64,000 nt of DNA. It comes from Bacillales bacterium UBA6449. Its GTDB lineage: Bacteria; Bacillota_I; Bacilli_A; RFN20; CAG-288. The notes under the pieces were generated by a model. That model had not been told where the DNA came from. It searched no databases and was given only the letters and a program-made list of their open reading frames with translations. Location of the stretch: contig DJOB01000002.1 in NCBI GenBank assembly GCA_002437105.1, forward strand, positions 8,049-72,048. The letters run 5' to 3'. Shown here piece after piece: positions 2,750 through 37,792 of the stretch (positions are counted from its first letter, which is position 1; each line of letters starts with the position of its first letter). A program made the translations under genes and the position numbers.

Positions 2750-5176
2750 ATGATGATAGAGTTAAAAAACCTCGTTAAACGATACAGAGTAGGGCGCAAC
2801 AAGCCGGATGTTGTGGCCCTCAAGGGCATCTCCCTGAAGCTGCCTGATGTCGGATTGATCTTCGTCCTCGGAAAATCCGGATCCGGAAAGTCTACCTTCC
2901 TGAATGTCGTGGGTGGACTGGACAGCTTCGAGGGGGGAGACCTGGAACTCTTCGGTAAGTCCGCTAAGGATTTCACCCCTGCTGACTATGATTCCTACCG
3001 AAATAAGTATGTGGGATTCATCTTCCAGGAGTACAACATCATCAACAGCTTTACGGTGCGGAGAAATGTCGAGCTCGCGATCGAACTTCAGAATCGCGAT
3101 CCCAAGAAGTCTGAGGTCGATGAGATCCTGTCCAGGGTCGGATTGCTCGAGTTGGCCGATCGCCTGCCCAGCCAGCTCTCGGGTGGACAGAAACAGCGTA
3201 TCGCAATCGCGCGTGCTCTTGTTAAACACCCGCAGTTGGTTCTGGCTGATGAGCCGACCGGTGCTTTGGATTCATTCAATACCCAGGAGATATTCAATCT
3301 GCTCAAGGAGATTTCCAGCGATAGGCTGGTGGTCTGCGTCACTCACGATGCTGCCTGCGCCGAGAAGTATGCGGACAGGATCATCAGGATCAAGGATGGT
3401 CATGTGGTCGGAGATCTGACGCGCCGTTTCACCGATGGGGTGAAGCTCGAAGGCAGCGATAATGCCTACCAGCTGAAGAACGGCCTGATCAAGGTCGATG
3501 ATGTGTCGAAGTTCAGCGAGAATGACTATCAGGCTATCAGGAAGGAGACTTCCGGCTCTACTGGTCCAGCCTACTATGCCTATGGTGACCATGTGCGGAT
3601 TCCCTCCGAGCTGGCTGAGGGCGACGATAGCGAGGATATCCCCGTCGGCTTCAGTCCGACCACGGATGAGGATATTGCTATCCGGTGTACTAAGAATAAG
3701 CAGTTCAAGTCGATCAAGTCTCACATGAGATCCAAGACGGTAGCCACCTTTGCCTTCGGTACACTCAAATCGTCACCGGCCCGGTTGGCGATGACGATCA
3801 TCCTCTCGATCCTGTCTTTCTCGATGCTGGGCGCTTCAGTCACTCTCTCGTCCTACGATCAGGCTGATACCTTTGCGGCTTCCTCCTCTATATATCACCC
3901 GTCTGCCTCCGTTCTGACGAAGAGTCTCTCGGGTGATGCGGATATCCCGGTTCAGGACGGTCGGCTGCATGAGAGCGATCTGGCTAGGATAAAGGACGGA
4001 TATTCATCCGAGGCGATCCCGGTCTACCGCTCGCCGCGAGCCTCGCTCATACGCAATCTTCCCGAGGGTGATACGTATAAGAACGATTGGTTTATCCCCT
4101 CCTTCAACAGCGTCGCACCTCTCGAGTCGCTCGATCAGGTTTCAGCCTTCGGGTTCCAGCTTGAGGGAGCCCTCCCCAAACTCGGTGAAGTCGTGCTGCC
4201 TGAATATGCGGTCTGGTATTTCAACAGAGCGGGAATCCAGATTGGCGATCGCGTGATAGAGGCGGGTAGCGTCGATGCCTCTACCTTGATCGGCAGTACC
4301 ATCAAGGTCAATTCTATCGCGGGTCAGAAGGCTGATGAGTTCACGGTCAGCGGAATCCTCGAGACGGATCTCACCGAGTCTCAGGTCGAGCAGGATCTGG
4401 TGAAGGCCCAGACTAGCACAGTTGATAGGTATCTGCTCGAGAGGGAAAATTGGGAAAATGGCCCCTCTAAGATAATGTTCTTCTCTCCTGAACAGATTGC
4501 TTCTTCCGATTTCCAGACTGGAATGAGAGTTGAAGCGGATGACATCAATCGGGTGCTCGTTCCTACCATCGATCAGCGCGAGCTCAAAAATCTCTGGCAC
4601 TATACCCACAACAATCTCTTCACGGCGGTTGACGCCGATCTTTCGGTCGGTTCCTCTCAACTTCCGGGCGGTGCTGATGGATATCGCTATGTGAGTTACA
4701 CTATCGAGTCCAGCGTCGCTTCGCTCTGGCTGGATTCCGATACTTTCTCGAGCTCTATAACCGGGGTTAAGAAGGTGGCTCTCGGTATCGCGATCACCCT
4801 CGCGGTAATCGCGATCCTCGTCACTACTAACTTCCTGTTCACTTCGGTCACCTTCAAGATCCGGGAGATAGGTATCCTCAAGGGACTCGGCAGCTCATCG
4901 CACGAAATATTCGGTATCTTCACCATCGAAGCGGTCATCATCGCGGCGGTCAACTTCATCGCTTCGTGCCTGATCTCCTTCGGTGTGATATACATCTTCA
5001 ACCGAGTGTTCCAGACGCTCTTCTCTATCCCCTTGCAGATCATCTCCTTCGGTTGGCTTCCTGCCCTGGTGCTCTTCCTCGTCTCCTTCGGGGTGTCGAT
5101 CCTGTCCGTCCTCATTCCCTCCTACTCTGCTTCCAGCATGAAGCCGGTCGATGCGATGAAGCGTGGACTCAATTAG
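2750..5176 (+). CDS. Fused ABC transporter, ATP-binding domain plus FtsX/MacB-type permease with a large extracytoplasmic domain
   Basis: Walker [10 protein letters not shown], signature LSGGQKQR, Walker B LVLADEPT. These are followed by one TM, a ~300 aa loop and three C-terminal TMs. GGAGG lies 4 nt (ATG 2750) or 7 nt (ATG 2753) upstream. Confidence 0.85.
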
Positions 5177-5224: not shown

Positions 5225-5947
5225 ATGGCAGAGATATATAAGCGCGTGCTTCTCAAGGTCTCCGGTGAGGCTCTGAGGGGAGCTGATGAATACGAGATCT
5301 TCTCTCCGGAGCTGCTGGATGAGCTGGCTGAGGCGGTAAAGGCGCTGCGGTCAGCAGGTACCCAGGTCGGTATCGTCGTGGGGGCCGGCAACATCTGGCG
5401 CGGCAATCGCGCGGCGTTCCTCGGGATGGATGGCGCTGACGCCGATGACATGGGGATGCTGGGAACGATCATCAACAGCTTGGCGATCCGGGCGGTGCTC
5501 AACAAGCACGGGGTTAAGGCGCATGCCTTCTCCTCGGTCCCCTGCCCTAAGTTTATCGATTACTACACCAAGCGGGATGCTATTCGCTCCCTGGAGGAGG
5601 GATTCGTCAACATCTATGGCGGCGGAACCTCCAATCCGTTCTTCACCACGGATTCCGCGGCGGCACTGCGGGCGCTGGAGACGGGTTGCGATGCGATCCT
5701 GATGGCCAAGTCGGGCGTGGATGGCGTCTTCACCGCCGATCCCAAGAAGGATCCTGCGGCGACGCTGATCAAGAAGGCGACCTACCGCGACCTGCTGGCG
5801 CGTAACATCAGGGTGATGGATGCGACGGCCGAAGGTCTACTGATGGATTCCAATATCACTACGCGGGTCTTCAGGATGATCCCCAAGAATTTTGTCGAGG
5901 TGGCCAACGGCTCCGATATCGGTACTTCTATAAAGAAGGGTTGGTAA
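5225..5947 (+). CDS. pyrH: UMP kinase
   Basis: KRVLLKVSGEAL, VVGAGNIWRG and FTTDSAAALRA motifs. GGAGGTG at 5212-5218 sits 6 nt before ATG 5225, so the track start (GTG 5210) overlaps the RBS. Confidence 0.95.
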   Translation: MAEIYKRVLLKVSGEALRGADEYEIFSPELLDELAEAVKALRSAGTQVGIVVGAGNIWRGNRAAFLGMDGADADDMGMLGTIINSLAIRAVLNKHGVKAHAFSSVPCPKFIDYYTKRDAIRSLEEGFVNIYGGGTSNPFFTTDSAAALRALETGCDAILMAKSGVDGVFTADPKKDPAATLIKKATYRDLLARNIRVMDATAEGLLMDSNITTRVFRMIPKNFVEVANGSDIGTSIKKGW

Positions 5948-5985
5948 GGTTATATAATCACAGCGAAGAGAAAAGCGAGGCAAAT

Positions 5986-6537
5986 ATGGAAGAGAAGGAT
6001 ATCATCGACGAAGTTAATAAGAAGATGGATGAGAGTGTCCAGAAGCTCAAGGAGGCGCTGGCGACCGTCAGAGCGGGAGCGGTCAATCCTAACGTGCTGG
6101 ATAAGATCAAGATCGAGTACTATGGAGAGATGACCCCCATCAAAGCGGTGGCTTCGGTCAATGCGGTGAGCGGAACGCAGCTGGTCGTCAAGGCCTTCGA
6201 TCCCACCGCGATCAAGGCGATCATCGCCGCGATCGGAACTTCTGATCTGGGCGTGAATCCCGTTCTGGACAAGAACGTGATCCGTATAAATTTCCCTCCT
6301 CTCTCCGGCGATCGCCGCAAGGAGTTCGTCAAGCAGGCGAAGGGATACTGCGAGGATGGCAAGGTCGCCATCAGGAATATCCGCAAGGATCTGATCAATA
6401 AGACCAAGAAGTCCGACGAGTTCAGCGAGGATATGGAGAAGAGGATCGAGACCTCCATCCAGAAGGCTCACGATGAACACATCAAGGCGATCGACAGCCT
6501 CTTCAAGACCAAGGAGAAAGAGCTGCTTTCTATCTAG
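5986..6537 (+). CDS. frr: Ribosome recycling factor
   Basis: MEEKDIIDEVNKKMDESVQKLKEALATVRAGAVNPNVLDKIKIEYYG...IRINFPPLSGDRRKE is a typical Frr sequence. The internal Met at 5986 is chosen over the track start at 5941. Confidence 0.95.
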   Translation: MEEKDIIDEVNKKMDESVQKLKEALATVRAGAVNPNVLDKIKIEYYGEMTPIKAVASVNAVSGTQLVVKAFDPTAIKAIIAAIGTSDLGVNPVLDKNVIRINFPPLSGDRRKEFVKQAKGYCEDGKVAIRNIRKDLINKTKKSDEFSEDMEKRIETSIQKAHDEHIKAIDSLFKTKEKELLSI

Positions 6538-6600: not shown

Positions 6601-7608
6601 ATGGCCAATAAACTCTCTCGATCCACGGAGCACTCGATGCTGGTGCGGGTGCTCACGAGCCTCGCCTTCGCGCTGCTGACGGTTCCCTGTGCCATTCTCG
6701 GCGGATGGTTCATGGTCGGGCTGTCCCTGGTGCTGGTGGGCTTTGGCTCCTACGAGCTCCTGACGATGCCGCGGCGGAAGTTCCCGGTGGCAGTCTGGAT
6801 CGCCACTTTTGTCTTCGTGTACGCCATCGTCTATAGCCAGTTCTTCTTGGATGCTGATCTGATTAGACAGTTCTTCAGCTCCAACTTGATATATTTAAAT
6901 GGGTTGCACTATTCTGTTCCCCTCTTGCTCCTCTTCGCCTACCTGATCGTGCTGTTCTTAGTCGAGTTCTTCTGCCGTGATTTCTCCCTGTCCGATCTCC
7001 TGTACCTGTTCGTTGCGGTATTTCTCGTCTCATTCGGATTTCAGTCGATCATCTATCTTCGTTTCGTCCCCGATGGCATGGCTCAGATCGCTGGAGGGGC
7101 CCAGACCATCTGGGGTGGCTTCGCCTACAATCTGACCTCGTGCCTGTTCATGTGGTGGGTGCTCTTCGGGGTGTGGCTCAGCGATATCGGTGCGTATTTC
7201 GTCGGGGTCTTCTTCGGTAAGCACCCGATGAATGTGAGGATCTCTCCGCACAAGACCTGGGAGGGATTCGCTGGCGGTGTCCTGTTCTCCTTCGCCTTCG
7301 CCTTCATCTATGTCGCCATCGTGAATTCCTGGCTGCGCGTGCCTCTTATCCCGGGGGTCATCGATGTCTATAAGGATCCCAGCGACTGGGGCTGGGTGGC
7401 TCTGTTCGCTCTGATGTTCGTCTCGCTGGACAATATCGGAGGCTTCCTCTTCTCCGCGCTGAAGCGGAAGTACGACGCCAAGGATTGGGGGTTCATCCTC
7501 CCGGGTCACGGCGGTATCATCGACCGGTTCGATGGTGTCATGGTCACTTCGATCGCAGCCTCGATCGTGGTCACGCTGCTCGGCAATCCGACTAGCTTTT
7601 TGGCTTGA
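6601..7608 (+). CDS. cdsA: Phosphatidate cytidylyltransferase (CDP-diglyceride synthase)
   Basis: SDIGAYFVGVFFGKHPM...ISPHKTWEGFAGG...GHGGIIDRFDG are CdsA signature blocks. The protein is multi-TM. AGGAGG lies 7 nt upstream. Confidence 0.9.
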   Translation: MANKLSRSTEHSMLVRVLTSLAFALLTVPCAILGGWFMVGLSLVLVGFGSYELLTMPRRKFPVAVWIATFVFVYAIVYSQFFLDADLIRQFFSSNLIYLNGLHYSVPLLLLFAYLIVLFLVEFFCRDFSLSDLLYLFVAVFLVSFGFQSIIYLRFVPDGMAQIAGGAQTIWGGFAYNLTSCLFMWWVLFGVWLSDIGAYFVGVFFGKHPMNVRISPHKTWEGFAGGVLFSFAFAFIYVAIVNSWLRVPLIPGVIDVYKDPSDWGWVALFALMFVSLDNIGGFLFSALKRKYDAKDWGFILPGHGGIIDRFDGVMVTSIAASIVVTLLGNPTSFLA

Positions 7609-7665: not shown

Positions 7666-7699
7666 GAACCGCAGGGATGAAACCTGCGGTTCATTTTTT
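7666..7699 (+). terminator. Rho-independent terminator after cdsA
   Basis: GAACCGCAGG-GATGAAA-CCTGCGGTTC (10 bp stem) followed by ATTTTTTC. Confidence 0.85.
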
Positions 7700-7757: not shown

Positions 7758-7765
7758 TGTATAAT
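7758..7765 (+). promoter_or_regulatory. Extended -10 element (TGTATAAT) upstream of the Dxr-like gene
   Basis: TGnTATAAT match ~65 nt upstream of the start. No good -35 hexamer seen. Confidence 0.45.
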
Positions 7766-7829
7766 CTATATGTTTTGGTACATCCTTAATTTTTAATAGT
7801 ATCGATAGATTAAGGTGCAAAAATAAGGA

Positions 7830-9734
7830 GTGATTATTTTGGATACTGTAATTCTCGGTGTCGATGAGCCTCTGGGACAGAGGTCTCTTCGTGAGGTCCT
7901 CAGCGCAGGACAGGATAGGGTCGTAGGCGTGGGTGTCTCTTCTCCGTCCTCTCTGACGGCTGAGCTTTTCAAGTCGCTGCCCGATCTCAGGATCGTGTCC
8001 CTCAGAGATGGGACGTTCGATCAGGCGCCTACCGGTGTCTCGGTGTACATCGGAAGTGGATCCGAAGCGAGGATGGTCGAATCTCTGAAGCCCCAGAAGG
8101 TTCTTCTCTGCACCTATGGAATCGACTCGTACAAGGTCTATGCTTCCCTGGTCAAGACGCAGAGTACGATTCTTCTAGGCGATGTCGATTCGACTCTCGT
8201 CGGCAATGTCAATCCGGGCGAGCTGGCTGGTATCGAGTATCTGTCGCCGGCTATCAGGCAGGGCTTGGAGCTGGTGAAGAAGGCGGCTGCGACCGATCGG
8301 ATCATCCTGGTCTACCGCGCTGATGAGAATGTCGAAAAGACTCCTGCGGAGAAGCTCTTCGCGCTGACGGGCAAGACTCTCAGTCAGGCGGGTGAGGACA
8401 CGCGGGGAGCGATCGAATCCGCGCTCATGATCCGCGCTTTCTTCGATCTCGCCATCCTCGCGCGCGTGACCGGTAAGGCGATCGACACTTTTGGCGCCAT
8501 GATCGGCGATCCGGAGAAGACTCCCGCTGTCATCTCTCGGGATGGTGCGTTCATCGATGCGGAGGGGAATCCGGTCACCGGTCTGACCGCGCTCTCCTAC
8601 GAGCTGTATCCCATGTTCTACTTCCTGACGAAGATATCCAGCAAGTTCAAGGTCAGGGGCGATATCGCCATCTGCGGCGCTTCCGAAGTGGCGATCAAGG
8701 CTTGTGCTGAGGATAAGATCGACCTCTCCAGCACGGAGACGGTGATCCGGCAGGTCGCTTCGGCTGTCGCCCATAATCTCAAGACTCCTACCGATGAGAT
8801 CCAGGCGCAGATCGTCTTCGACACGGCGGTCAAGGCGGCTAAATCTCTGGTGGATCGGGTGGTCAATGCTCGCGAGCACGGTACTACCCTAGTTCAGGTG
8901 CGGAAGTCCAAGAAGCTCAACGCTGAGAGGGAGGAGAAGGTCGTCGAGACTAAAGAGGAGCACAAGGAGCACAAGAAGGCGACGCGCTGGAAGAACGATC
9001 CGGACAAGAAGGAGCTCTGGGCTGAGCACGTTCGGGTGAGACAGGCGCGCCAGAAGCGAGAGGCGGAGAACGAGAAGCGTTCCAAGGTGCGGATGCAGCA
9101 GGTGGAGAAGGCGAAGGCCGACCGCGGCGATTTCCCAGTCGAGATAGTCGCGGATGAGAAGAAGGATCGCGATCAGCACAATCGCGAACGGACCCGCTAC
9201 GGATCTCACTCCAGCTATCGCGGACATTCATCTTTCGGCGACCATCGTTCCTTCGGTGGCCACAGGAGCTTCCATCGGGATGGTGAGAGCGGCGAGAGAA
9301 GGTCCTTCAGATCCGCGGGGGAGAGGAAGTTCGGCGCCCACAAGTCCTTCGGTGATCATCGCTCTTTCGGCGATCACAAGAGCTTCCACCGGGACGGTGA
9401 GAGCGGTGAGAGAAAGTCCTTCAGACCCGCAGGCGAGAGGAAGTTCGGCGCCCACAAGTCCTTTGGCGATCATCGTTCCTTCGGTGATCATAAGAGCTTC
9501 CACCGGGATGGTGAGAGTGGCGAGAGAAAGTCCTTCAGGCCTGCGGGCGAGAGGAGGTTCGGTGCCCGCAAATCCTTCGGCAATCATCGTTCCTTCGGCG
9601 GACACAAGTCCTTTGGTGGTCATCGTGGTTCCTACGATGGTGGCAAGAGGAGCTTTGGAGGTAGGAGAAGCAGTTATTCTAGAGGGTCTAGCCGGAGTTC
9701 TTTCCGGAAGCCGTCCACTAAGAGCGAAGAGTAG
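7830..9734 (+). CDS. Degenerate Dxr-like (1-deoxy-D-xylulose-5-phosphate reductoisomerase fold) protein with a K/E-rich segment and a basic His/Arg/Ser/Phe/Gly repeat tail
   Basis: It occupies the dxr slot between cdsA and rseP. By-eye alignment to Dxr: ILGVDEPLGQRSL vs ILGsTGSIGtqTL; QSTILLGDVDSTLV vs KTIaLANKEtLV; DRIILVYRADEN vs ERlIiTASGGsF; GASEVAIKACAEDKI vs aANEvAVaaFLagkI. The catalytic and NADPH motifs are not conserved. The start is ambiguous: GTG 7830 overlaps the AAGGAG RBS, while TTG 7839 has 8 nt spacing. Confidence 0.5.
   Translation: MIILDTVILGVDEPLGQRSLREVLSAGQDRVVGVGVSSPSSLTAELFKSLPDLRIVSLRDGTFDQAPTGVSVYIGSGSEARMVESLKPQKVLLCTYGIDSYKVYASLVKTQSTILLGDVDSTLVGNVNPGELAGIEYLSPAIRQGLELVKKAAATDRIILVYRADENVEKTPAEKLFALTGKTLSQAGEDTRGAIESALMIRAFFDLAILARVTGKAIDTFGAMIGDPEKTPAVISRDGAFIDAEGNPVTGLTALSYELYPMFYFLTKISSKFKVRGDIAICGASEVAIKACAEDKIDLSSTETVIRQVASAVAHNLKTPTDEIQAQIVFDTAVKAAKSLVDRVVNAREHGTTLVQVRKSKKLNAEREEKVVETKEEHKEHKKATRWKNDPDKKELWAEHVRVRQARQKREAENEKRSKVRMQQVEKAKADRGDFPVEIVADEKKDRDQHNRERTRYGSHSSYRGHSSFGDHRSFGGHRSFHRDGESGERRSFRSAGERKFGAHKSFGDHRSFGDHKSFHRDGESGERKSFRPAGERKFGAHKSFGDHRSFGDHKSFHRDGESGERKSFRPAGERRFGARKSFGNHRSFGGHKSFGGHRGSYDGGKRSFGGRRSSYSRGSSRSSFRKPSTKSEE
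9228..9569 (+). repeat. Three in-frame tandem copies of a 114-nt (38-codon) unit inside the Dxr-like ORF, with a degenerate partial fourth copy to ~9630
   Basis: The unit encodes (K/S)SFGDHRSFG(D/G)H(K/R)SFHRDGESGER(K/R)SFR(P/S)AGER(K/R)FGA(H/R). Copy boundaries are 9228, 9342 and 9456. Confidence 0.9.
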
Positions 9735-9762: not shown

Positions 9763-11238
9763 ATGAGAATCTTTATCGGAATAATCGTATTCATATTTGG
9801 ATTGGGTATAGTCATCTGTCTCCACGAGGCTGGGCACTTCTCGATGGCTAAGCTCTTCAAGGTCTACTGCGAAGAGTTCTCGATCGGGTTCGGACCACGG
9901 ATCATCTCCATCAATCCTAAGGATAAGAAGACTGGTCAGAAGAAGTGGGAAACCACTTTGAACATCCGTCTGCTGCCTTTGGGCGGGTATGTCTCCATGG
10001 TTGGAGAAGAGGAAGATTCTCAGATGACGGAGGCGGGTCAGACTCCTGTTCCCAAGGAGCGAACCTTCGGCGGGGTGAATCACGGCAAGCAGGCGATCAT
10101 CATGATCGCCGGTATCGTGATGAACGTCATCCTGTCCTATTTCCTGTTCCTCTTCGGCAATGCCTTCGGTCGGCAGCAGGATCCCTATGTCGATAGGATC
10201 GCGCTCGTCGATAATTCTCCCTTAGCGGAGAGGGGGCTATCCTCGGGTGACATCATCGATGGTCTGGTTCTCGAGCTCGGCACCCTGGATATCGACAGTG
10301 ATGGAAATAGGTCGGCCAGCAGCACCTTGATGATCGTCGATGGGGATGGTAATGAGTTGACCCCTCAGCAGTACGTCTCTTTTAAGGATAAATATTCTGG
10401 TATTAAATACAATCAGCTCATCCGGAAGATCGGTAGCTATCCCGAGGTGGAAACCGAGTTTAAGTTCGATACCTACAATTTCTATCGCCTGCAATCTATC
10501 ACGGATATCGCCGTCTTCGATGATCATGGCGCCAATCTGGTAGTCCAGGCGGATTCGGTTGTGGCCTCATCCGATTCGACCGATGCTGATAAGCTGCTTC
10601 GTTACGCGCCGGTCGGGAAGGATGGCGGATTGAAACTGACGGTCGACTACACGAGAAGGAGCGATGGTCAGAAGGGTGAGACGATTCAGGCTCAGATACC
10701 GAATAAGGAGGCGGAGAGGCTGCTGGATGATCATCAGACTCTGCAGAAGTACTATTCCTTCGGTAGTCTCGGCGTCGGTGTCTATATGACCTATATGCCC
10801 GACCTGGCTGCGCAGAAGGCTGGATCCGACCGGATTACTGGAGATACCTTCGGCCGCGCGATCGTCCGGTCCTTCGTCAATCAGGGCGAGGGTATAAGGG
10901 ATGTCTATGTCGCTCTCGGATCGCTCTTTACTCCTAAGGGCTGGAACAATGTCGGCGGTATCGTCTCGATCTTCATGACCAATCAGCAGGCGGTCGATCT
11001 GGGCTTCTACTATGTCATGTGGGTCTGGGGAATCATCTCCATCAATCTCGCGGTCTTGAACCTGCTTCCTATCCCCGGTCTGGATGGTTGGCAGCTGCTG
11101 CTCTGCATCATCGAGTCGATTACGCGCAAGAAGATATCGCAGAAGTTCAAGGGATACGCTTCGATCATCGGTCTATCCTGCCTGATCATCCTCTCGGTCG
11201 TGCTGATCATCCTCGATCTGATCAGGTATCTCGGTTAG
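9763..11238 (+). CDS. rseP: RIP metalloprotease RseP (site-2 protease family)
   Basis: TM1 carries HEAGHF (HExxH), a PDZ-like LAERGLSSGDIIDG segment follows, and the C-terminal motif is NLLPIPGLDGWQLL. AGGAGG lies 8 nt upstream. Confidence 0.85.
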   Translation: MRIFIGIIVFIFGLGIVICLHEAGHFSMAKLFKVYCEEFSIGFGPRIISINPKDKKTGQKKWETTLNIRLLPLGGYVSMVGEEEDSQMTEAGQTPVPKERTFGGVNHGKQAIIMIAGIVMNVILSYFLFLFGNAFGRQQDPYVDRIALVDNSPLAERGLSSGDIIDGLVLELGTLDIDSDGNRSASSTLMIVDGDGNELTPQQYVSFKDKYSGIKYNQLIRKIGSYPEVETEFKFDTYNFYRLQSITDIAVFDDHGANLVVQADSVVASSDSTDADKLLRYAPVGKDGGLKLTVDYTRRSDGQKGETIQAQIPNKEAERLLDDHQTLQKYYSFGSLGVGVYMTYMPDLAAQKAGSDRITGDTFGRAIVRSFVNQGEGIRDVYVALGSLFTPKGWNNVGGIVSIFMTNQQAVDLGFYYVMWVWGIISINLAVLNLLPIPGLDGWQLLLCIIESITRKKISQKFKGYASIIGLSCLIILSVVLIILDLIRYLG

Positions 11239-11269
11239 TTAAGGTGATCTGGTAAGGGAGGGATTATCC

Positions 11270-14200
11270 ATGGCTGCTCAGATACAGATGGATGATGTTC
11301 TTCAAAGATTTCTCAACAGGATCGGGGTTCGCGATCAGGAACCGTTCCGCGAGTGCTGCTTTTCCGACATGTCCTTCGACGATGGGGTCAATCGGGTTTA
11401 TCTGGTGCTGCGCTGCCCCCGCATCCTTCCTCTGTCCGCCTATCGCGAACTGTTCTCCTGTATCGATAAGCTGGCGCGTGCGGCGCCGGAGGAGAGATTC
11501 GATACCACTTTGAACTTCGAGTATGTGAAGCGGCGCGAGGGTCTCGATCAGCTGCTCGATGCCTTCACCGCGGAGAATTCTTTCTACGGGCTCGGCGATG
11601 CGACGCTGCCGGCGGATGAGAACAACCCGATCATCTTCAATGTGCCGGAGTCCAGCGATGAGACGCTCGACAGTCTGAAGGACGAAGCGGATCAGTTTGA
11701 GAAGTTCCTCAAGCAGATCGGACTCAAGTATAAGGTGGCGCTGGTCGAGAGGAAGCCAGATGCGGATACCAGCACCTCTGAGCCGGCGTCCGAGAATGAT
11801 AGTGAAGATGGCATTCCGCCCATCGACGATAGCTATGCCCCTTCGCGGACCGACTACGACATCCCCGATGATTCGGAAGAGGAGGGAGATGGCGATCTCG
11901 AGGATATCCAGAAGTTCAGAAACGAGCAGGCGCAGCGGGCGCAGGAGATGGTGAAGCGCGCCATGGAGCGCGAGAACCGTCTCAAGACCGAGTATGAGCA
12001 ACGCCGGAAGGATATGCTGACCTACTATCCGGCCAAGATCAAGGATATCGACAACCTGAAGCGCGTCCTCGTCGAAGGGACGATCTTCAAGGTCAGCGAT
12101 ATGCGGCAGACCAAGAAGGGTAAGCACTTCTTGACCATCGAGTATTCGGATGGGTCTTCCTCTATCGCTTCGACTCTCTTCGAGAATAAGAAGATCACTC
12201 TCGAGATCCTCAACAGCCTCAAGCCCGGGGTGAAGATACGCGTCAAGGGCGAGGTCCAGGATGATAAGTATCTCCATCAGCTCGCGATCGATGTTCACAA
12301 TATGGAGTTTCTCCCGCCCGATCCTCTGCGGGAGGACAAGAGCGAGGAGAAGCGCGTCGAGCTCCATCTGCACACCAATATGTCCGCGATGGACGGTATC
12401 GCCTCGATCACCAAGTACGCCAGCCTTGCCCACCACTTCGGGATGAAGGCTATCGGAATCACCGATCACGGTGTCGTGCAGGCGTTCCCGGAAGCGCAGA
12501 AGATCGGGAAGAAGCTCGAGATGAAGATGCTCTACGGCTGCGAGCTATACATGGTGGATGAGCATCTGGATATCTGTCTCAACACGAGGGACGAGCCGCT
12601 GGATCAGGCTGACTACGTCATCTTCGATCTCGAGACGACGGGTCTCTCCGCTCACTACGATAGGATCATCGAATTCGGAGCGACTAGGTATTCGCACGGA
12701 CAGCACAAGGACGATATCGACTTCTTTATCAATCCCGATCGCCAGCTTAGGGATTTCATCAAGAAGAAGACTAACATCACCCAGGAGATGGTCGACGCCG
12801 GTCGTCCGATCAAAGAGGCCTTGAAGGCCATCCTCGAGTTCTTTGGCGACTCGGTCATCATCGACCATAACGCCGCCTTCGATATCGGCTTCCTCAACGA
12901 GGCGCTCAAGAATAACGGGCTTCCGCAGATCAAGAATCCAGTGATCGATACGCTGCCCCTCTCGCGCTACATGTATCCGCATCAGCGCTCCCACACCCTC
13001 GAGGATGTGGCGAGAACTCTAGGTATCTCGTACGATGATACGAAGGTCCATCGCGCCATCTACGATGCTCAGGTGCTCGAGAGCGTCTATCTGGGTCTGC
13101 TCTCGGTCCTGGAGCAGACCACGCCCAAGCTCAATATGAAGGACTTGGAGAACCTCACTTCGAAGGACGTCATCCTGACGGCGCGCCCCAAGCACGTCAT
13201 CGCCTACGCTAAGAATGAGCAGGGACTCAAGGATCTGTATAAGATCATCTCCCTGTCCTCGACCGAGTATCTAGCTAATGTTCCTAAGACGCCTCGCAGC
13301 CTGATTGAGAAGTATCGTGAGAATCTCATCATCGGTTCAGCCTGCTTCAACGGCGAGGTCTTCGACTCCGCCCTGACGAAATCCACCGATGTCCTGAAAG
13401 GGGTGATGAAGTTCTACGACTATATCGAGGTCCAGCCCCCTGCCTGCTACTCCTGGCTCATCAACAACGGTCAGATCTCCGACGACGATAGTCTCAAGAT
13501 GATCCTCAAGGATCTGATCGATGCGGCGGAAGATATCGGCAAGATGGTGGTCGCCACCGGAGATTGCCACTACCTGAATCCTGAGGATAAGATCTTCAGA
13601 GATGTCTACATCTTCTCGAAAGGACTAAAAGGTGCTAGACATCCTCTCAATCCTTTCGGACGCGATAAACAGAAGCCGTATCCCAATCCCGATCAGCATT
13701 TTCTCTCCACTGATGAGATGCTCGAGGCCTTCAGTTTTCTAGGCGACCAGGAGCGCATCAAGCGGATCGTCATCACCAATTCGAACAAGATCGCCGACGC
13801 GCTCGGCGAGATCTATCCCTCCAAGGACAGGCTCTACCCTCCCTATATCAAGGACTGCGACACCAACCTGATCAACCTCGTCTATAAGACCGCTAAGGAG
13901 ATCTACGGAGATCCTATTCCGGAGCCTATCAAGAAGCGTCTCGACACCGAGCTGCACGGTATCGGTACCAACGGATACTATGTCATCTACTGGATCGCTT
14001 CCGTCCTGGTGCGAAAGGTCAATCAGACGGGGCATCTGGTCGGCTCGCGCGGTTCGGTCGGCTCCTCGCTGGTGGCGACGATGTCCGGCATCACCGAGGT
14101 CAATCCTCTCCCGCCTCACTGGATCTGTCCGAAGTGCAAGCACCTCATCTGGGCCGATGCGGTAAAGTGCCCCGATGGGTTCGATCTGCCCGATCGCGCG

Positions 14201-16709: not shown

Positions 16710-18323
16710 ATGATCATGTTAAAGAAAAAGTACCTTTCGCTCCTTTTAGCTGGACTACTTATGTCGTGCCAGGGAACGGTGACTGATTCCAGCACCTCCA
16801 CCGGCTCCTCGGTGGGCAGCAGTGATTCTGCTACCTCCTCCTCGGTGGCTTCCTCTTCCTCGGTTACTTCGTCTGCGAGCAGCTCCTCCGCGGAGACGGT
16901 CGATTTTGAGAGTATGTTCGCGGCTCTGACCGCAGCGGATTCCCTGACCCTCACCGGCACTTCGACGCGGATCTACTCCTCAGCTGATTCCTCCTCTGAG
17001 GCGGTGCCTGACGAGGTCAGTTCTACGGTCATAAAATTCTCGCCCGATAGCTACAGCTACACGGCGACCGGGGCGCATCCTACCCAGCTGGGGGTCTGGA
17101 ATGAGGATGGCAAACCCGTTCAGTACTATGTCGATTCTCAGAACCAGATCTCCAGCAAGGAGATCTCTCTGAATGGCTCCACTTTAAACGACTTCGATTT
17201 TTTTGCTAACCCGTTCAAGAAGTTTGAGGGTGGCTTCCTCAAGGAGACCGATCAGGAGGGCGTCTACGATATCGACCTGACCTCTGACGCTGCCAAGGCG
17301 GTTCTTACGGCGGCGGCGCCGGTTCTCACCCTCTATACCCTGACCGAATTCAGCCAGTTCCGTCTCTCCTATGTTGATGGGGTCTTCTCCCTGGATTTCT
17401 CGACTCCCTCCTTCAGTGCCGACTACGAGCAGTTCGCCCTTCGATCTCACTTCACCATCGATCTCAGCGCGGAGACCGATCACACCACTCCCAAACCCGA
17501 GCCTCTGCCTCACTACGATTACCAGGATCGGGTGAAAGCGGCTTTTGATCAGCTAAGCACCTCCCCCTATAAGCTCAGCTACGTGTATAAGATCACGGAT
17601 AACAGCTACGATTTTATCGGCGACTACTATAAGACTGAGAAGGTGAACCTCGTCGTCACCTCCACTACTGAGGCGGATGCTACGAAGAGCGTCAGCGGCT
17701 ACTACGAGGTCGAGGACAAGTGGCACGAGATCAAGAAGCTGCCGAAGCGGGAGGCTTATTGCTATTCCAGCGAGGAGGCTAGCTATCCTCTCCCCAAAGA
17801 TGTCCATCTGGCGATCGCTCCTGAATTCTTTATTCAGGATGGTGAGTCCTATACCGTGAGCGATCTGAATGCCAACGCCGATTTCGCTGAGGGTATCTCC
17901 CCCTTCCTCATCGCTTACGCCCAGGTGACGAAGACCGTCATCACGCTGGACGCGGAGAATCGGGTCTCGACGATGAGGATGACGGGCACCACGATCGATA
18001 TCAGCTTTACCTTCAGTTACGATGCTGCGAGCTATGGTGTCTTTGACAGCCTCAAGATGATGGATCCGCTGAGCTTCTACGATGGTAAATACACTTTCTC
18101 CACTACGCCGGAGCAGACCTTTACGATCGTGGTCGCTGGCAGCTCCGTTACTCTCAACGGCAAATCTGGAACGGATGTGAAGATAAACAATTTTAAAAAC
18201 TATTCATTCATGATCGGAAATGACACGTACGAGATCAACTATTCTTCCTATTCGGATTCTTTCACTATCTTCTTCAATGATGGCACTCTTTCTAATAACG
18301 TTACTTTCACCCCTAACGACTAG
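16710..18323 (+). CDS. Lipoprotein with Ser/Thr-rich stalk, function unknown
   Basis: MLKKKYLSLLLAGLLMSC lipobox followed by QGTVTDSSTSTGSSVGSSDSATSSSVASSSSVTSSASSSS. The start may be 16710 or 16716. Confidence 0.8.
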   Translation: MIMLKKKYLSLLLAGLLMSCQGTVTDSSTSTGSSVGSSDSATSSSVASSSSVTSSASSSSAETVDFESMFAALTAADSLTLTGTSTRIYSSADSSSEAVPDEVSSTVIKFSPDSYSYTATGAHPTQLGVWNEDGKPVQYYVDSQNQISSKEISLNGSTLNDFDFFANPFKKFEGGFLKETDQEGVYDIDLTSDAAKAVLTAAAPVLTLYTLTEFSQFRLSYVDGVFSLDFSTPSFSADYEQFALRSHFTIDLSAETDHTTPKPEPLPHYDYQDRVKAAFDQLSTSPYKLSYVYKITDNSYDFIGDYYKTEKVNLVVTSTTEADATKSVSGYYEVEDKWHEIKKLPKREAYCYSSEEASYPLPKDVHLAIAPEFFIQDGESYTVSDLNANADFAEGISPFLIAYAQVTKTVITLDAENRVSTMRMTGTTIDISFTFSYDAASYGVFDSLKMMDPLSFYDGKYTFSTTPEQTFTIVVAGSSVTLNGKSGTDVKINNFKNYSFMIGNDTYEINYSSYSDSFTIFFNDGTLSNNVTFTPND

Positions 18324-18674: not shown

Positions 18675-19607
18675 ATGAAACTCATTCATCCTATCGATCC
18701 CGCTAAGCTCGAGCAGGCGGGTCACGGCAATGGATTCATCGCCGCTCTTGATCAGTCCGGTGGATCTACTCCTAAGGCTCTGAAGGGCTATGGTGTCGAC
18801 GAGTCCATGTACACCGTTAACGGTGTCAGGGACGATGCGAAGATGTTCGACCTGGTTCACGAGATGAGGACCCGTGTCATCAAGTCTCCCGAGTTCAATG
18901 GCTCCAAGATCATGGGCGCCATCCTGTTCGAGCAGACTATGGACAGGACCATCGACGGCAAGGGCACTGCTGAGTTCCTTTGGGAGAACAAGCACGTCGT
19001 TCCCTTCCTGAAGTGCGATAAGGGTCTCGCTGAGGAGGAGCACGGCGTCAAGCTGATGAAGCCCATTCCCCACCTCGATGAGACTCTGGAGAAGGCCGTC
19101 TCTCACGGTGTCTTCGGAACCAAGATGAGATCCGTTATCGACAGCTTCGACGAGATCGGTATCCGTGCCATCGTCGACCAGCAGTTTGCGGTCGGTATGC
19201 AGATCTGCGAGCATGGACTCGTTCCTATCCTCGAGCCCGAGACCACCATCACTTCTCCCGACAGGGAGAAGTCCGAGGCTCTGCTCCACGATCTGTTCGT
19301 CCAGAAGATCAAGGAGCTGCCCGCCGAGGCCAAGATCATGATCAAGATCTCCATCCCTGTTAATCCCCACCTTTGGGATGATCTGATCGGCAATGAGCAC
19401 GTGGTCAGAATCGTTGCTCTGTCCGGTGGATTCAGCCGCGATGTCGCCAATGAGAAGCTCAAGCACTGCAAGGGAGTCATCGCTTCCTTCTCGCGTGCTC
19501 TGCTTGAGGAGCTCCGCTATCAGCAGACTGAGGCTGAGTTCGACGCGGCCATCAAGACTGCCATCGATTCCATCTACGACGCTTCCGTCAACAAGATCGC
19601 TGACTAG
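18675..19607 (+). CDS. fda: Fructose-bisphosphate aldolase, class I
   Basis: GNGFIAALDQSGGSTPKALKGYGV...MRTRVIKSPEF...GAILFEQTMDR...VVPFLKCDKGLAEE...FGTKMRS...ASFSRAL...IYDASVNK is near-collinear with staphylococcal-type class I Fda as I remember it. Confidence 0.9.
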   Translation: MKLIHPIDPAKLEQAGHGNGFIAALDQSGGSTPKALKGYGVDESMYTVNGVRDDAKMFDLVHEMRTRVIKSPEFNGSKIMGAILFEQTMDRTIDGKGTAEFLWENKHVVPFLKCDKGLAEEEHGVKLMKPIPHLDETLEKAVSHGVFGTKMRSVIDSFDEIGIRAIVDQQFAVGMQICEHGLVPILEPETTITSPDREKSEALLHDLFVQKIKELPAEAKIMIKISIPVNPHLWDDLIGNEHVVRIVALSGGFSRDVANEKLKHCKGVIASFSRALLEELRYQQTEAEFDAAIKTAIDSIYDASVNKIAD

Positions 19608-23300: not shown

Positions 23301-23483
23301 ATGGTCGAAATCAGTGTTCCTGATATCAGATGCCAGGGCTGCTGCAATAAGATTCTTTCCGCTCTCGCTCAGCAGGGTATACACGCGACGGCGGATGCCC
23401 GCTTCAAGATCGTTACCGTCGAGGCGAAGGATGAGAAGGCGGCGCGCGAGGTGATCATCGATGCAGGCTACAAGCCGGAGTAG
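23301..23483 (+). CDS. copZ: Small HMA-domain metallochaperone-like protein
   Basis: 60 aa, MVEISVPDIRCQGCCNKILSAL...VEAKDEKAAREVIIDAGYKPE, with a ferredoxin-like HMA pattern and a CxxC. AGGAGG lies 7 nt before ATG 23301. Confidence 0.65.
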   Translation: MVEISVPDIRCQGCCNKILSALAQQGIHATADARFKIVTVEAKDEKAAREVIIDAGYKPE

Positions 23484-24750
23484 CGGCTGGGGACCTCTCC
23501 GGGAAGGCTGGGCGGATTTCCGGAAGAACTGGTGGCGGGGTATTTCCATCTTTGCCCTCCCCATCATCGGCCTCTCTCTGATCCTGTTCCTCGGGATGTC
23601 GACCAGCTACCTCTCCCTGATCATGGTCCCCGTCATGCTTCCCTTCCTCTACTGCGCGTATCGGTTCTTCTGGACCAGCCGCGACAGCAAGCGCACCTTC
23701 GGGATCAACTACACCGATTATGGTGTCCGGGGTAACGGGTGTTTCGGCTTCCTCAATTCATCCCTGATCGGTGCGCTGGTCACCGTCTTCATCTACTACA
23801 TCCTCGCGGTCACCATCACGCCGGCCCTCATGAAGCTCTTCGGGGGTGGCGCCTACGTGCAGCAGATCGAGGATCTGATCAAATCGAGCAATATTCAGGA
23901 TCTGTTCAGCCTGCTGAATGACTCTTCCTTCCAGGTGGCTCTCTCCAAGCCGCTGACGATCATCAACGGCATCTCCCTGTATGTCGGTGGCTCGATAATG
24001 CTAATCCTGTTGGATATGAGGAGGGCCGAGTATGTAGCGGGCTTCCGGATTCTGCCCGATGCCGATGTCAACATCCCCGGCTCGATGATCCGGAGTATCG
24101 GCAAGTCGTTTACCCGGGGACTATACTGGGAGAGGATCAAGCTCAAAGCGCCGGTGGCGATTCCTGCATTCCTTCTGCTCAGCGTCCTCTATGCCGGTTT
24201 CGTGGCGGCCTTCTGCTTTGTCGACATCCCTCTGGCGACGATCGCGGGCTCGCTTCCCGTCCTCTGTCTAGCTCCCTTCCTCATCGTCTCCTACGCGGTC
24301 GATGCCTCGTTCGATGTCCCGGTGATCGACAGCCTGATGAAGGCCTACTACAGTGCAGCTACGCAGGAGATGAAGGATGGGATCGTGAAGACCTTCTACA
24401 ACACCCAGTACCGTCACACGTCCGAGCGGTTCGGTCAGGTGCCCTTTCAGGGAGTGATTCTTTCCTTCGATCAGAGCCAGTCTGATAACAGCAACATCTT
24501 CACGGTCGACGCGGAAGATATCAAGACGGAGACCAAGCCTACCAATCCGGTCGATCACGGCGCTTCCGCTTCCACCACCCCTGAGGATACTCAGGGTAGT
24601 TCGAAGGAAAAAGAGGCCGCTAGACCAGCGGAGCCGGCGAGCAGAAACTACGGAGTTCTCGATTTCTCGGCGCTCGATGATCAGAATCATAAGACCGGTT
24701 CGGGTGATGGAAACGATGGAGGAGGGAACGCTCATGGATCGCAGGAGTAA
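23461..24750 (+). CDS. Polytopic membrane protein with a disordered acidic/Ser-Thr C-terminus, function unknown
   Basis: Several hydrophobic helices and a C-terminal low-complexity tail. It overlaps the copZ-like ORF by 23 nt. No family recognised with confidence. Confidence 0.55.
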   Translation: MQATSRSSGWGPLREGWADFRKNWWRGISIFALPIIGLSLILFLGMSTSYLSLIMVPVMLPFLYCAYRFFWTSRDSKRTFGINYTDYGVRGNGCFGFLNSSLIGALVTVFIYYILAVTITPALMKLFGGGAYVQQIEDLIKSSNIQDLFSLLNDSSFQVALSKPLTIINGISLYVGGSIMLILLDMRRAEYVAGFRILPDADVNIPGSMIRSIGKSFTRGLYWERIKLKAPVAIPAFLLLSVLYAGFVAAFCFVDIPLATIAGSLPVLCLAPFLIVSYAVDASFDVPVIDSLMKAYYSAATQEMKDGIVKTFYNTQYRHTSERFGQVPFQGVILSFDQSQSDNSNIFTVDAEDIKTETKPTNPVDHGASASTTPEDTQGSSKEKEAARPAEPASRNYGVLDFSALDDQNHKTGSGDGNDGGGNAHGSQE

Positions 24751-32813: not shown

Positions 32814-34253
32814 CTATCGGAGCGAGTATTTCTCGATGAAGTCTTCCATCGGTTTGAAGGCGGTGGTTCCGAAGCTGGTGAAGGTGAAGACATAGGGGGA
32901 GAGAGGGGCATGTGTCTCCGCGTTGAAGACGTTGGCGGTGAAGGTCACCTTAACTTCACTCGAATCGATATCGCCCTCTATCTTCATATCGATGGTGGAC
33001 CAACCCATCGTCAGATCGTCGGATGAGGTGATTCCGAAATTCTTGAAGAAGTCGACGCCGATATCGTAGTCGTCGGTGCTGTATACCCCGTCCGCGTAGG
33101 TGAGGTACTGCATCCGCTTGAAGAGGAGCAGGTTCTTCGGATAGTTCATCACCGCTGAGACATCGTCCTGCTTCGTGGTGAAAGCGCCGCGCGCGTATCC
33201 GGGCTTCTCGGAGTTCTCCTGGGTGATGAGCTTGATCTTCTGCTGCGAGTCGGTATAGGTCAGGAAGACATCATCGTAGATCAGCGGACCGGAGGTTCCT
33301 TCGATGTTGATAGCTTCGGGCTTGGAGATGTGGATATATCCTCGGTTAGCGTACTGCACGAGTTCCGGGTAGGTGGAAATGTATTTGCTCGAAGCGTAGT
33401 TGAAATAGTACTGATCGGTGAAGTACTCGAGCACGCCGGTGCTGCCGTCGCTGAGCGGCTCTTCGCGCAGATAGTTATCGGCGGCGAAAAGATCGCGAAC
33501 CTTGGTCTCCTCCGCGGTGGGAGTGAAGGGGGTACCACCCTCTGCGACGAAGCTATCGAGCAGGTCGACTCGGGCGGTGTAGAAATCGGTTAGAACCAGC
33601 TGATAGGCCGCATTGGTATCGCTCAGGGTAAAGCTGATCGTCAGAGTCTGCGTAGCCGTATCCAGCTTGAAATCCATCACATCCTTGAGGAATAGATAGG
33701 AGGAGTCGGATAGGTCGATGAGGTTCATCACCTTGGTGCAGACATTGCGCTTGGAGGTGGAGACTTCGGTTCCGTCCTTCAGAGATGAGAAATCTACATC
33801 GAACAGGGAGACGACGGTGGAGTTGTCATAGAGGGAGGTGATCGGATCAGCACCCGACTTCAAAACTTCGCCAGCGAGCACATAATCCTTCTTATTTTCA
33901 TCGGACTCGATGCTGTAGGAGGCGACACCAGCAGCGGTTTTGACATACCCGCTCTGGTAGTCATCGTCGTCCTGCATCCAGGTGTAATCGGCGGTGAAGA
34001 TCAGATTTGGACGAGCTGCTCTCTTGTTGATGTAGGTCTTGAGCGAGTAGCGGGCTTCCTCTCGGTTCAAGTAGTTCAAAGCCTCTTTGACCGTATGGAA
34101 GGATGATTGCTCCGCCGATGATGAACTCGCATCGGTGGTCGTTCCGCTCGTGGAGACCAGAGAGGAAGCTGGGGTGGAGTCAGGAGTACGGCTGCAGGAA
34201 GTCATGAGTGTGAGTGCGAGCAGCGGAAGGATGAGAATCTTGTTCTTAGTCAT
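32814..34253 (-). CDS. Lipoprotein with Ser/Thr stalk (array member 4)
   Basis: MTKNKILILPLLALTLMTSC followed by SRTPDSTPASSLVSTSGTTTDASSSS. Confidence 0.8.
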   Translation of the reverse strand: MTKNKILILPLLALTLMTSCSRTPDSTPASSLVSTSGTTTDASSSSAEQSSFHTVKEALNYLNREEARYSLKTYINKRAARPNLIFTADYTWMQDDDDYQSGYVKTAAGVASYSIESDENKKDYVLAGEVLKSGADPITSLYDNSTVVSLFDVDFSSLKDGTEVSTSKRNVCTKVMNLIDLSDSSYLFLKDVMDFKLDTATQTLTISFTLSDTNAAYQLVLTDFYTARVDLLDSFVAEGGTPFTPTAEETKVRDLFAADNYLREEPLSDGSTGVLEYFTDQYYFNYASSKYISTYPELVQYANRGYIHISKPEAINIEGTSGPLIYDDVFLTYTDSQQKIKLITQENSEKPGYARGAFTTKQDDVSAVMNYPKNLLLFKRMQYLTYADGVYSTDDYDIGVDFFKNFGITSSDDLTMGWSTIDMKIEGDIDSSEVKVTFTANVFNAETHAPLSPYVFTFTSFGTTAFKPMEDFIEKYSLR

Positions 34254-34258
34254 ATCTC

Positions 34259-36862: not shown

Positions 36863-36881
36863 TTATGGTTTTCCTTTTAGC

Positions 36882-37748
36882 TTAGTCTTTTTCGAATATG
36901 GGCTTAAAGAAGTTGATCAGGCCGTTGTTGTCGAGGAGGTGGACTATATCTAGGGTGACGGATATGTTGACCTCGGTCACATTGACGGGTGCGGCCGTGC
37001 CATCCTCGAGCTTAGCGACGACGGTGAAAAGGTATTCATCGTAGTCGGAGGTGCTCGATTCGGTGCTGTAGGTGAGAGTCAGGTAGATAGGGTTGTATCT
37101 AGTTCCGGAGACGAGGGCCTGCAGCACACCGGTCAGATCCGAGTTGAAGTAGACGATGTAGTCCTCGGATCCGGTGACGCTGTACTGAGCTTTCCAGTAG
37201 TCTGGCAAGGAAAGGTAAGCGGTGGCCTCTTCCAGCGTCGCTTTGTTCCTCGCGTTGACCGCATCTTTGAAGAAGATGAAGTCCCCCTCGTCCTTGGCGG
37301 TCACGATCGATCCACCGGCCTTCTTAGCTTTGATCGTGTACGTCTCACCCGAGACGTGAGAGATTTCCAGGATGCTCTCGTCGTACTCGAATTTGAGGAC
37401 AGTTCCCTGAGGATCGTACTGGGCGGAGGGAGTCATAGTGAAGGTGTAGGTCTTGCCTACGACCAAGTGCGATCCGACTGCGGTATCGAGGAAGACACCG
37501 CTCATCGACACCCGGTTCACCTTCTCTTTATCATCGATAGTGACATCGGCTGGGAAATCGAAGTTGTAATCCGCGGATGAACTAGAGGAATCACTAGTGC
37601 TGGAGCTGGGGGTGTCAGAGGAGACGACCGATGAATTCGGAGTGGAGGAGTCCGGTGTGGTGCTAGAGGAGGAGCTGGGGGTAGCGGGGGTGCAACTGGC
37701 GAGTGAGAGGGCAGCAAGGACAGCGCCGAAGAGACGTATTTTTTTCAT
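36882..37748 (-). CDS. Lipoprotein with Ser/Thr stalk (array member 2)
   Basis: MKKIRLFGAVLAALSLASC followed by TPATPSSSSSTTPDSSTPNSSVVSSDTPSSSTSDSSSSS. Confidence 0.8.
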   Translation of the reverse strand: MKKIRLFGAVLAALSLASCTPATPSSSSSTTPDSSTPNSSVVSSDTPSSSTSDSSSSSADYNFDFPADVTIDDKEKVNRVSMSGVFLDTAVGSHLVVGKTYTFTMTPSAQYDPQGTVLKFEYDESILEISHVSGETYTIKAKKAGGSIVTAKDEGDFIFFKDAVNARNKATLEEATAYLSLPDYWKAQYSVTGSEDYIVYFNSDLTGVLQALVSGTRYNPIYLTLTYSTESSTSDYDEYLFTVVAKLEDGTAAPVNVTEVNISVTLDIVHLLDNNGLINFFKPIFEKD

Positions 37749-37792
37749 AGCTTTTCTATTTCCTATCGTAAAACCAAGCTATTATACTTTTT

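Follow-up and report, generated by a model that had tools for sequence, protein, structure and literature searches.

What kind of protein is encoded by the gene that fills the dxr slot of an uncultured gut bacterium, and why has this gene been kept? The usual gene order in Bacillota is frr-uppS-cdsA-dxr-rseP-proS-polC, in which Dxr is the enzyme of the methylerythritol phosphate (MEP) pathway. The locus considered here lies in a 64,000-nucleotide stretch of Bacillales bacterium UBA6449 (assembly GCA_002437105.1, contig DJOB01000002.1, positions 8,049 to 72,048 of the forward strand; termed the window throughout), where pyrH, frr and cdsA are followed by an open reading frame (ORF) at 7830..9734 on the + strand and then by rseP and polC. 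The product is labelled 'hypothetical protein [Firmicutes bacterium]' by NCBI; a sequence-only reading of the window had taken it for a catalytically degenerate Dxr homologue with a long basic repeat tail. We find that the gene very probably encodes a retained, Dxr-derived pseudoenzyme whose C-terminal add-on predates the decay of its active site. The ORF is confirmed and has 634 amino acids if counted from GTG; the likelier start is the TTG at 7839, which gives a 631-amino-acid product, and public gene calls agree with it (P0002, and P0014, which is identical to the window protein; products begin MDTVILG). Residues of the window protein are numbered from this TTG.

Descent from Dxr is visible at the level of profiles and fold. 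The window protein matches no Dxr model in Pfam or NCBIfam, even at E<=1. A phmmer search against PDB sequences matches it to the DXR of T. maritima (3a06) at E=4.4e-4 in two collinear stretches, and a profile built from the five fully degenerate family members only (the window protein, P0001, P0003, P0004 and P0007) finds the same PDB entry at E=1.2e-13, with residues 4-346 aligned to 6-367. With residues 1-360 as query, HMMER was run exhaustively over 1.84 billion cluster representatives and returned only 11 proteins: the window protein itself, nine proteins of 464-675 amino acids, and P0011 (2067 amino acids), a marginal match that lies outside the family set. The family is very small, with 10 clusters among these representatives. 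P0005, P0006 and P0008 align with the entire query (E 3e-13 to 2e-7) and pass the PF02670 and PF13288 thresholds, which also links the window protein to Dxr through intermediates; P0009 and P0010 match the query in its C-terminal part only (E about 5e-5), yet carry all three Dxr Pfam domains. An AlphaFold2 (AF2) model made from the ten-sequence family alignment has a predicted local distance difference test score (pLDDT) of ~90 over residues 1-345, and its best 50 Foldseek matches in the PDB are all DXR (E 5e-18 to 1e-13; target-normalised template modelling scores 0.55-0.68; ~370-415 aligned columns). Judged by profile homology and predicted structure, the window protein is a true Dxr homologue by descent and fold, and the profile and structure searches by which the sequence-only reading stood or fell gave significant Dxr matches. 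Its by-eye alignment held for four of five motif pairs when the family was aligned with E. coli Dxr in MAFFT; in the fifth, ALMIRAFFDL pairs with ATMMNKGLEY and not with GLEvIEAhwLF, an offset of about five residues.

The same MAFFT alignment indicates what the Dxr body has lost (residue numbers of active-site positions are those of E. coli Dxr). The E. coli sequence has the expected residue at every tabulated catalytic position, and P0009 and P0010 serve as independent references. The NADPH loop, G-S-T-G-S-I-G in E. coli, reads G-V-D-E-P-L-G in the window protein, with only the first and last glycines (G8, G14) kept, and LANKES reads LGDVDS, with K125 replaced by V. DSEH has become SPAI (D150 S, S151 P, E152 A, H153 I), SGGPF has become ADENV (S186-G-G to A-D-E), and NAANE has become GASE, with N227 R, K228 A and E231 D. 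In the lid loop H209 is A, W212 is deleted and M214 is E; H257 is P. The divalent-metal ligands D150, E152 and E231 are thus S, A and D, and the metal site of Dxr is not retained; among the substrate and phosphonate contacts, K125, S151, H153, S186, N227, K228 and H257 are V, P, I, A, R, A and P, and S222 is kept. None of T10/G11/S12, K125, D150, E152, H153, S186, H209, W212, M214, N227, K228 and H257 survives in the window protein; among Dxr positions it keeps S222, the structural (R/L)YP motif, G8 and G14. The ex-catalytic domain is the least conserved region of the family, at 21% mean pairwise identity. G-x-D-(E/T)-P-x-G replaces the NADPH loop in all five fully degenerate members, and this pattern marks the change as a new conserved motif and not random decay. 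On this alignment the window protein is almost certainly catalytically inactive. The earlier claim that the functional motifs (NADPH loop, NKE, DSEH, SGG) had been replaced agrees with the alignment, in which the NADPH and catalytic residues are lost and not conserved. Every tested feature of a functional Dxr failed, so annotation as Dxr is not warranted and the protein should not be called by that name.

The ten family members form a graded series. P0009 and P0010 are near-canonical: they have the three Pfam Dxr domains and all tabulated catalytic residues (P0010 has Cys at S222), score 314 and 305 bits against TIGR00243 (cutoff 315.7 bits), and are presumably active enzymes. P0008, P0006 and P0005 are intermediate, having kept GxxGxxG and lost the metal, substrate and lid residues (TIGR00243 156, 122 and 108 bits). 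P0007, P0004, P0003, P0001 and the window protein are fully degenerate; their Rossmann loop is lost too, and there is no TIGR00243 match for the three that were scored (P0007, P0004 and the window protein). In all members with a readable contig the next gene downstream is rseP, and where the contig extends far enough cdsA lies on the upstream side; the one exception upstream is L007, where the gene follows a polC encoded on the opposite strand. The window locus has the frr-(uppS)-cdsA-dxr-rseP order, and a bona fide Dxr occupies the same slot in L004 and L016. These two loci belong to the near-canonical members, and both have uppS between frr and cdsA. The gene is absent from its usual position in the window, where only a 64-nucleotide gap separates frr (ending at 6537) from cdsA (6601), and in L002, L009 and L011. 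The window also has no proS between rseP and polC (11238-11270, a 31-nucleotide gap). The hosts are closely related uncultured gut Bacilli: Frr, where full-length or near-full-length genes can be compared, is 67-81% identical to that of the window, and 67% identical in the hosts of P0009 and P0010. Scans for the locus in genomes and in metagenomes gave one confirmed locus each, and the ~300 other pattern matches per scan were at about chance level. Repeated loss of peptidoglycan, with decay of bactoprenol synthesis, has been reported in the gut orders RF39, RFN20 and ML615J-28, and the pattern of uppS and active-site loss fits these reports (PMC7301438, PMC10868615).

Beyond the Dxr body the window protein has ~285 extra residues, close to the ~280 of the sequence-only reading, and all ten family proteins extend past the end of E. 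coli Dxr, which falls where a helical module of ~110 residues begins. The predicted helices of the module have pLDDT ~80, and its net charge across the family is +9 to +21. Its core, KKASRWKNDPxKKELWxEH, lies at the turn that joins helices one and two; mean pairwise identity is 61% in this core and 21% in the ex-catalytic domain. Most members have another small motif, FPVxIVxDE, after the core. The module (residues 335-452) gave no Pfam match better than E=0.026 in any one member and no PDB sequence match at E<=10, and a module-only AF2 model gave no Foldseek match at E<=10. No known RNA-, DNA- or ribosome-binding domain was matched in Pfam, among PDB sequences or by structure. A word-indexed protein search with the 118-residue module alignment found one fragment only (P0012), its candidate list probably having been swamped by K/E-rich words, and the same kind of search with the duplicated 22-residue core found no matches. 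By sequence and model, the module is a new, unannotated domain. In P0009 and P0010 this module (KKASRWKNDPSKK...) and a basic tail of Ser, His and aromatic residues follow a Dxr with nearly all catalytic residues, which indicates that the add-on predates the loss of catalysis. A dead Dxr fused to a basic tail, as first proposed, is what the window encodes; the tail was not added to an already dead enzyme.

The tail is conserved in a different sense. Its length varies from 0 to 184 residues across the family, and its composition is conserved, not its sequence: where present it has a net charge of +5 to +26, is rich in Ser, Arg/Lys, Gly and His with <=15% aromatic residues, and has frequent basic-(S/P)-aromatic triplets. 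The window tail, from residue 458 (174 residues), has a net charge of +22, is S/G/R/F/H rich and contains 15 such triplets. It includes a tandem repeat, and the three full copies differ from one another by 11-14 synonymous and 2-6 non-synonymous changes, a ratio of non-synonymous to synonymous rates (dN/dS) of 0.02-0.10. The copies' ratio argues that the repeat is translated in this frame and that its protein sequence is constrained, as the sequence-only reading had held in proposing purifying selection on the tail. The repeats are constrained, but the element conserved through the family is the RWKNDP module. In the window protein the body has a net charge of -7 (isoelectric point, pI, 5.1), the module +9 and the tail +22, and the same layout recurs family-wide. 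With an acidic body (pI ~5) and a basic add-on, the protein is strongly charge-segregated. No similar tail was found in other window proteins in a scan of the window. Two candidate identities were rejected as compositional matches: HxsA4 (NF038313, His-Xaa-Ser repeat; 15.7 bits, E=0.021, against a cutoff of 55 bits) and an NCBIfam match to ribosomal protein L10. Ribosomal protein S2 of two relatives (360-364 amino acids; L011 4410-5492, L016 4864-5958) is extended at both ends, by an acidic stretch at the N terminus and, at the C terminus, by a basic patch, KRKGxKRRK, followed by an Ala/Pro/Glu-rich tail; it has no similarity to the RWKNDP module, and shows that charged extensions on housekeeping proteins occur elsewhere in the clade.

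Several observations indicate that the gene is retained and not dying. At least five independent assemblies encode either the exact 631-residue protein or a variant of it with 1-4 substitutions; within-species comparison gives 0-4 synonymous and 3 non-synonymous differences, which are too few to be informative. In the sister cluster (P0004), 13 of the 16 members are full length, and two of the three others represent a single copy broken in half by a frameshift; variability within this cluster is lowest in the module (4 variable sites in 112) and highest in the tail (14 in 113). Between orthologues (window against L001, L002 and L011) synonymous sites are saturated, and dN/dS is uninformative. 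Absence or frameshifting of the ORF in close relatives had been named as grounds for abandoning the sequence-only reading; instead, it is intact in independent assemblies and, in the same slot, in relatives at 24-48% identity. Intact ORFs, the 61% conserved module core and the constrained repeats all support that reading's claim of a retained pseudoenzyme. By the usual definition, namely Dxr homology, loss of catalytic residues and retention under purifying selection, the sequences mark this protein as a pseudoenzyme.

The simplest reading of these data is that a second, non-catalytic function of the add-on kept the gene alive after catalysis was no longer needed. In the ancestor of this small clade, which consists of uncultured gut Bacilli related to the Mollicutes, Dxr would have acquired the add-on, a highly charged helical module with the RWKNDPxKKELWxEH turn, usually followed by a disordered basic tail rich in Ser, His and aromatic residues. 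This would have conferred on Dxr a second job independent of catalysis. The enzymatic job would later have become dispensable, probably on loss of the MEP-dependent bactoprenol supply, uppS being gone from its usual place in the window. The active site would then have decayed in steps, the metal and substrate site first and the NADPH loop after, while selection would have preserved the fold, along with the C-terminal helical domain and the add-on. This order of events, from add-on to active-site loss to Rossmann-loop loss, can be read from the graded series, and at every stage the module is the best conserved element. The Dxr-fold body, which is acidic (pI ~5), would now act as a scaffold, probably dimeric like Dxr, and its two basic module-and-tail arms would make multivalent contacts with a polyanion: RNA or ribosomes most likely, or else DNA. 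Polyanion binding is favoured because of the charge, the disorder, the Arg/Lys-aromatic 'sticker' composition and the analogy with bacterial RNA-handling tails. As a whole, the conversion of an orthologous dxr into a pseudoenzyme that is a scaffold with polyanion-binding arms is the best explanation we have, and a reasonably probable one. The RNA- or polyanion-binding mechanism within it is put forward tentatively. We are similarly guarded about the fuller proposal that Dxr gained an essential non-metabolic role through the helical module and sticker-rich basic tail (e.g., in organising RNA or ribosomes, possibly as a condensate scaffold), and that this role outlived the MEP pathway.

A number of points weigh against this explanation. 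P0005 and P0007 are almost without the low-complexity tail, so the tail cannot be essential everywhere. The Dxr-like body evolves much faster than its neighbours (22-48% identity to the window across relatives, against 42-60% for RseP and 61-70% for PolC in the four loci with most or all of the gene), and with synonymous sites saturated this leaves the evidence for constraint on the body weak. One frameshifted copy occurs in the P0004 cluster (P0024 and P0026 on one 32.9-kb ENA contig), with the break near residue ~258, where DERYPM becomes DERSWS; either an error in sequencing or a pseudogene at strain level could explain it. In P0005 (L010, 5086-8269) the active site is dead and the Rossmann loop intact, and an intact-looking uppS lies next to the gene, which means that loss of catalysis is not strictly tied to loss of uppS. 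On these sequences its host must either obtain isopentenyl diphosphate (IPP) without P0005 or be caught in mid-decay; the IPP could come from the mevalonate route. No MEP, mevalonate or cell-wall genes were seen between 16.7 and 55.3 kb; only ~48 kb of the window was surveyed, and this bears neither on MEP genes nor on a second intact dxr elsewhere in the genome. Nor does any match in Pfam, among PDB sequences or in Foldseek indicate what the module or tail binds, and we infer RNA binding from charge and composition alone.

The alternative that survives best keeps the same pseudoenzyme and gives it another target, the basic module and tail anchoring the protein to the anionic membrane surface near CdsA, UppS and RseP; we consider it unlikely. 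The add-on would once have placed Dxr near the site of lipid-linked isoprenoid use, and the protein would now be a membrane scaffold or the regulator of a membrane protein. The gene always lies between the membrane-protein genes cdsA and rseP (the upstream exception noted above aside) and is probably co-transcribed with rseP, but this synteny is the ancestral Bacillota order and carries little functional information. Tails that are basic and aromatic bind acidic lipids, although the helices here are extremely polar (K/E/R) and no amphipathic hydrophobic face is visible in their sequence. A localisation role would also fit the presence of the tail on an active-looking Dxr beside uppS; no use for a dead enzyme at the membrane is evident once the pathway has gone.

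Slightly less likely again is a neofunctionalised ligand-binder or enzyme, in which a remodelled pocket (GxD(E/T)PxG, ILLGD and other motifs) would bind a new small molecule or catalyse another reaction, with the tail in an accessory role. In its favour are the new loop motif, conserved among five degenerate members whose bodies share only 23-48% identity with that of the window protein, and a fold predicted with high confidence. The pocket itself argues otherwise: no known cofactor, metal or substrate ligand is left, the flexible lid loop has been lost, conservation is lowest in the ex-catalytic domain, and the acidic residues and proline of the new loop are incompatible with dinucleotide binding in a Rossmann fold. 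A slowly decaying dxr relic, kept open by chance or operon polarity while its low-complexity tail grows by replication slippage, would suit the fast-evolving body, the frameshifted copy, the very variable tail and the bare NCBI annotation, but is highly improbable given a ~1.9-kb ORF intact in at least five deeply diverged lineages, a confidently predicted fold, a conserved module core, a protein identical across independent assemblies bar a few substitutions, and repeat copies whose dN/dS is the opposite of that of neutral slippage products.

Comparison with known systems places the retained pseudoenzyme more precisely. Canonical Dxr/IspC (PF02670 + PF08436 + PF13288; TIGR00243) shares with the window protein the three-domain fold, profile homology, the cdsA-dxr-rseP slot, (R/L)YP, G8 and G14; the window protein is below all Dxr thresholds and has lost the NADPH loop, metal ligands, phosphate-binding residues and lid loop, and canonical Dxr is without its ~285 C-terminal residues. 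The tailed P0009 and P0010, known from metagenomes only, have the same module, basic tail and slot in closely related hosts, but differ in their three Pfam Dxr domains, their catalytic residues (S222C in P0010) and the uppS next door. HisZ, an inactive HisRS paralogue that regulates HisG, is similar in being an enzyme fold without catalytic residues that has been selected for a non-catalytic role. HisZ and most described cases are paralogues beside an active enzyme, whereas here an orthologous copy appears to have been converted in its original locus, with the retained function seemingly in the appended module and not in the old fold. DRL (Dxr-like, the class II DXP reductoisomerase of Brucella and others) is an active enzyme of a different family that replaces Dxr; it resembles the window protein in name and MEP step only, the latter being a Dxr descendant and almost certainly inactive. 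Basic low-complexity regions of RNA-handling proteins, such as the C-terminal half of RNase E and the tails of DEAD-box helicases, are likewise disordered, Arg/Lys/Ser/Gly-rich and interspersed with aromatic residues, with composition kept over sequence, and the window repeats are multivalent; no sequence or profile relation to them was found, and the window tail is on a dead metabolic enzyme after a conserved helical module. A full-text literature search turned up no description of a pseudoenzyme derived from Dxr or of a Dxr extended at its C terminus. What is unusual among pseudoenzymes is the combination of an orthologue converted in place, a function apparently in an undescribed appended module, and the survival of all intermediate stages.

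Coordinates of the gene, its predicted domains and its flanks are collected in the table below. The PF01148 and PF02163 neighbours confirm the earlier placement of the ORF in the dxr slot between cdsA and rseP; 230 nucleotides separate it from cdsA. Its expression signals are less clear. Terminator-like sites are about as numerous in the scan as in shuffled sequences, which makes the hairpin after cdsA only suggestive. A promoter scan found no full -35/-10 pair on the + strand, and the 5' leader has no significant fold (z=0.44). Only 28 nucleotides, carrying GGAGG and no terminator, lie between the stop codon and rseP; with so short a gap and no terminator, the gene is probably co-transcribed with rseP. 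The promoter and terminator context of its own that had been claimed for the ORF is thus represented by the upstream hairpin and TATAAT, but not by a complete promoter or a downstream terminator.

Table. Features of the pseudo-Dxr locus (positions in the window; residues of the 631-residue product).
Feature	Coordinates	Strand	Remarks
cdsA, upstream neighbour defining the dxr slot	6601..7608	+	PF01148
Terminator-like hairpin and T-run, after cdsA and upstream of the gene	7666..7692	+	10-bp stem, 7 G-C pairs, ATTTTTTCTT tail
Perfect -10 hexamer TATAAT, with TTG before it	7760..7765	+	possible own promoter, by sequence inspection
Ribosome-binding site and start	7825..7841	+	AAGGAG 7825-7830 overlaps GTG 7830; probable start TTG 7839-7841 is 8 nt after AAGGAG
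Residues 1-125, degenerate Rossmann (ex-NADPH) domain	7839..8213	+	GxxGxxG to G-V-D-E-P-L-G
Residues 126-255, degenerate catalytic/dimerisation domain	8214..8603	+	D150/E152/H153, S186-G-G, H209/W212/M214 loop, N227 and K228 replaced or deleted
Residues 256-345, Dxr C-terminal helical domain	8604..8873	+	(R/L)YP and family-specific ETxIR(R/Q/K) kept
Residues 346-455, novel K/E/R-rich helical module	8874..9203	+	three long helices, net charge +9; in 10/10 family members
Residues 379-397, module core KKATRWKNDPDKKELWAEH	8973..9029	+	at the turn between two helices; nine invariant residues; most conserved stretch of the protein
Residues 456-631 and stop, disordered basic low-complexity tail	9204..9734	+	pLDDT <50
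In-frame tandem repeat, 114 bp (38 aa), 3.3 copies	9234..9608	+	copies differ mostly at synonymous sites
rseP (M50 protease), downstream neighbour	9763..11238	+	PF02163

Other features of the window were recorded alongside the locus. Upstream of it, a 362-residue ORF without Pfam match lies on the opposite strand (1532-2620), and an 808-residue fusion of an ABC ATPase and an FtsX-type permease in a single polypeptide (2750-5176) is directly upstream of pyrH; the annotations are those of the L012 counterparts. The frr ORF is listed from a TTG at 5941 (5941-6537), overlapping pyrH; gene callers on identical contigs give a 183-residue product from about 5986. Large ORFs without a Pfam match at 1e-5 occur in a row at 32814-39970 on the - strand (479, 867, 288 and 725 residues) and on the + strand at 16710-18323 (537 residues), 18675-19607 (310 residues) and 23461-24750 (429 residues); these large ORFs are lineage-specific gene content. 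A tRNA-Glu(ttc) at 61111-61186 (-) is predicted by ARAGORN only and is not reported by Rfam at the gathering threshold; tRNA-Asn at 61276-61351 is found by both.

Annotation pipelines label these proteins 'hypothetical', and intermediate members still match Dxr models, so that the MEP pathway could be wrongly scored as present in metagenome-assembled genomes of RF39-, RFN20- and ML615J-28-like gut bacteria. The family is taxonomically very narrow, and would come as a surprise to specialists in the MEP pathway and in pseudoenzymes. If the fuller proposal of an essential non-metabolic role is true, this would be the first known pseudoenzyme derived from a MEP-pathway enzyme, with every stage of the transition alive in related gut bacteria. 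This natural series in one slot, from an intact active site with add-on, through a dead site with an intact Rossmann loop, to a fully dead protein, makes the path from moonlighting enzyme to pseudoenzyme testable. Dxr has been validated as a target of antibiotics and antimalarials, and the general view of it is that of an enzyme with one function; a Dxr with a conserved extra module that outlasts its chemistry points to a role beyond isoprenoid synthesis in at least one bacterial clade.

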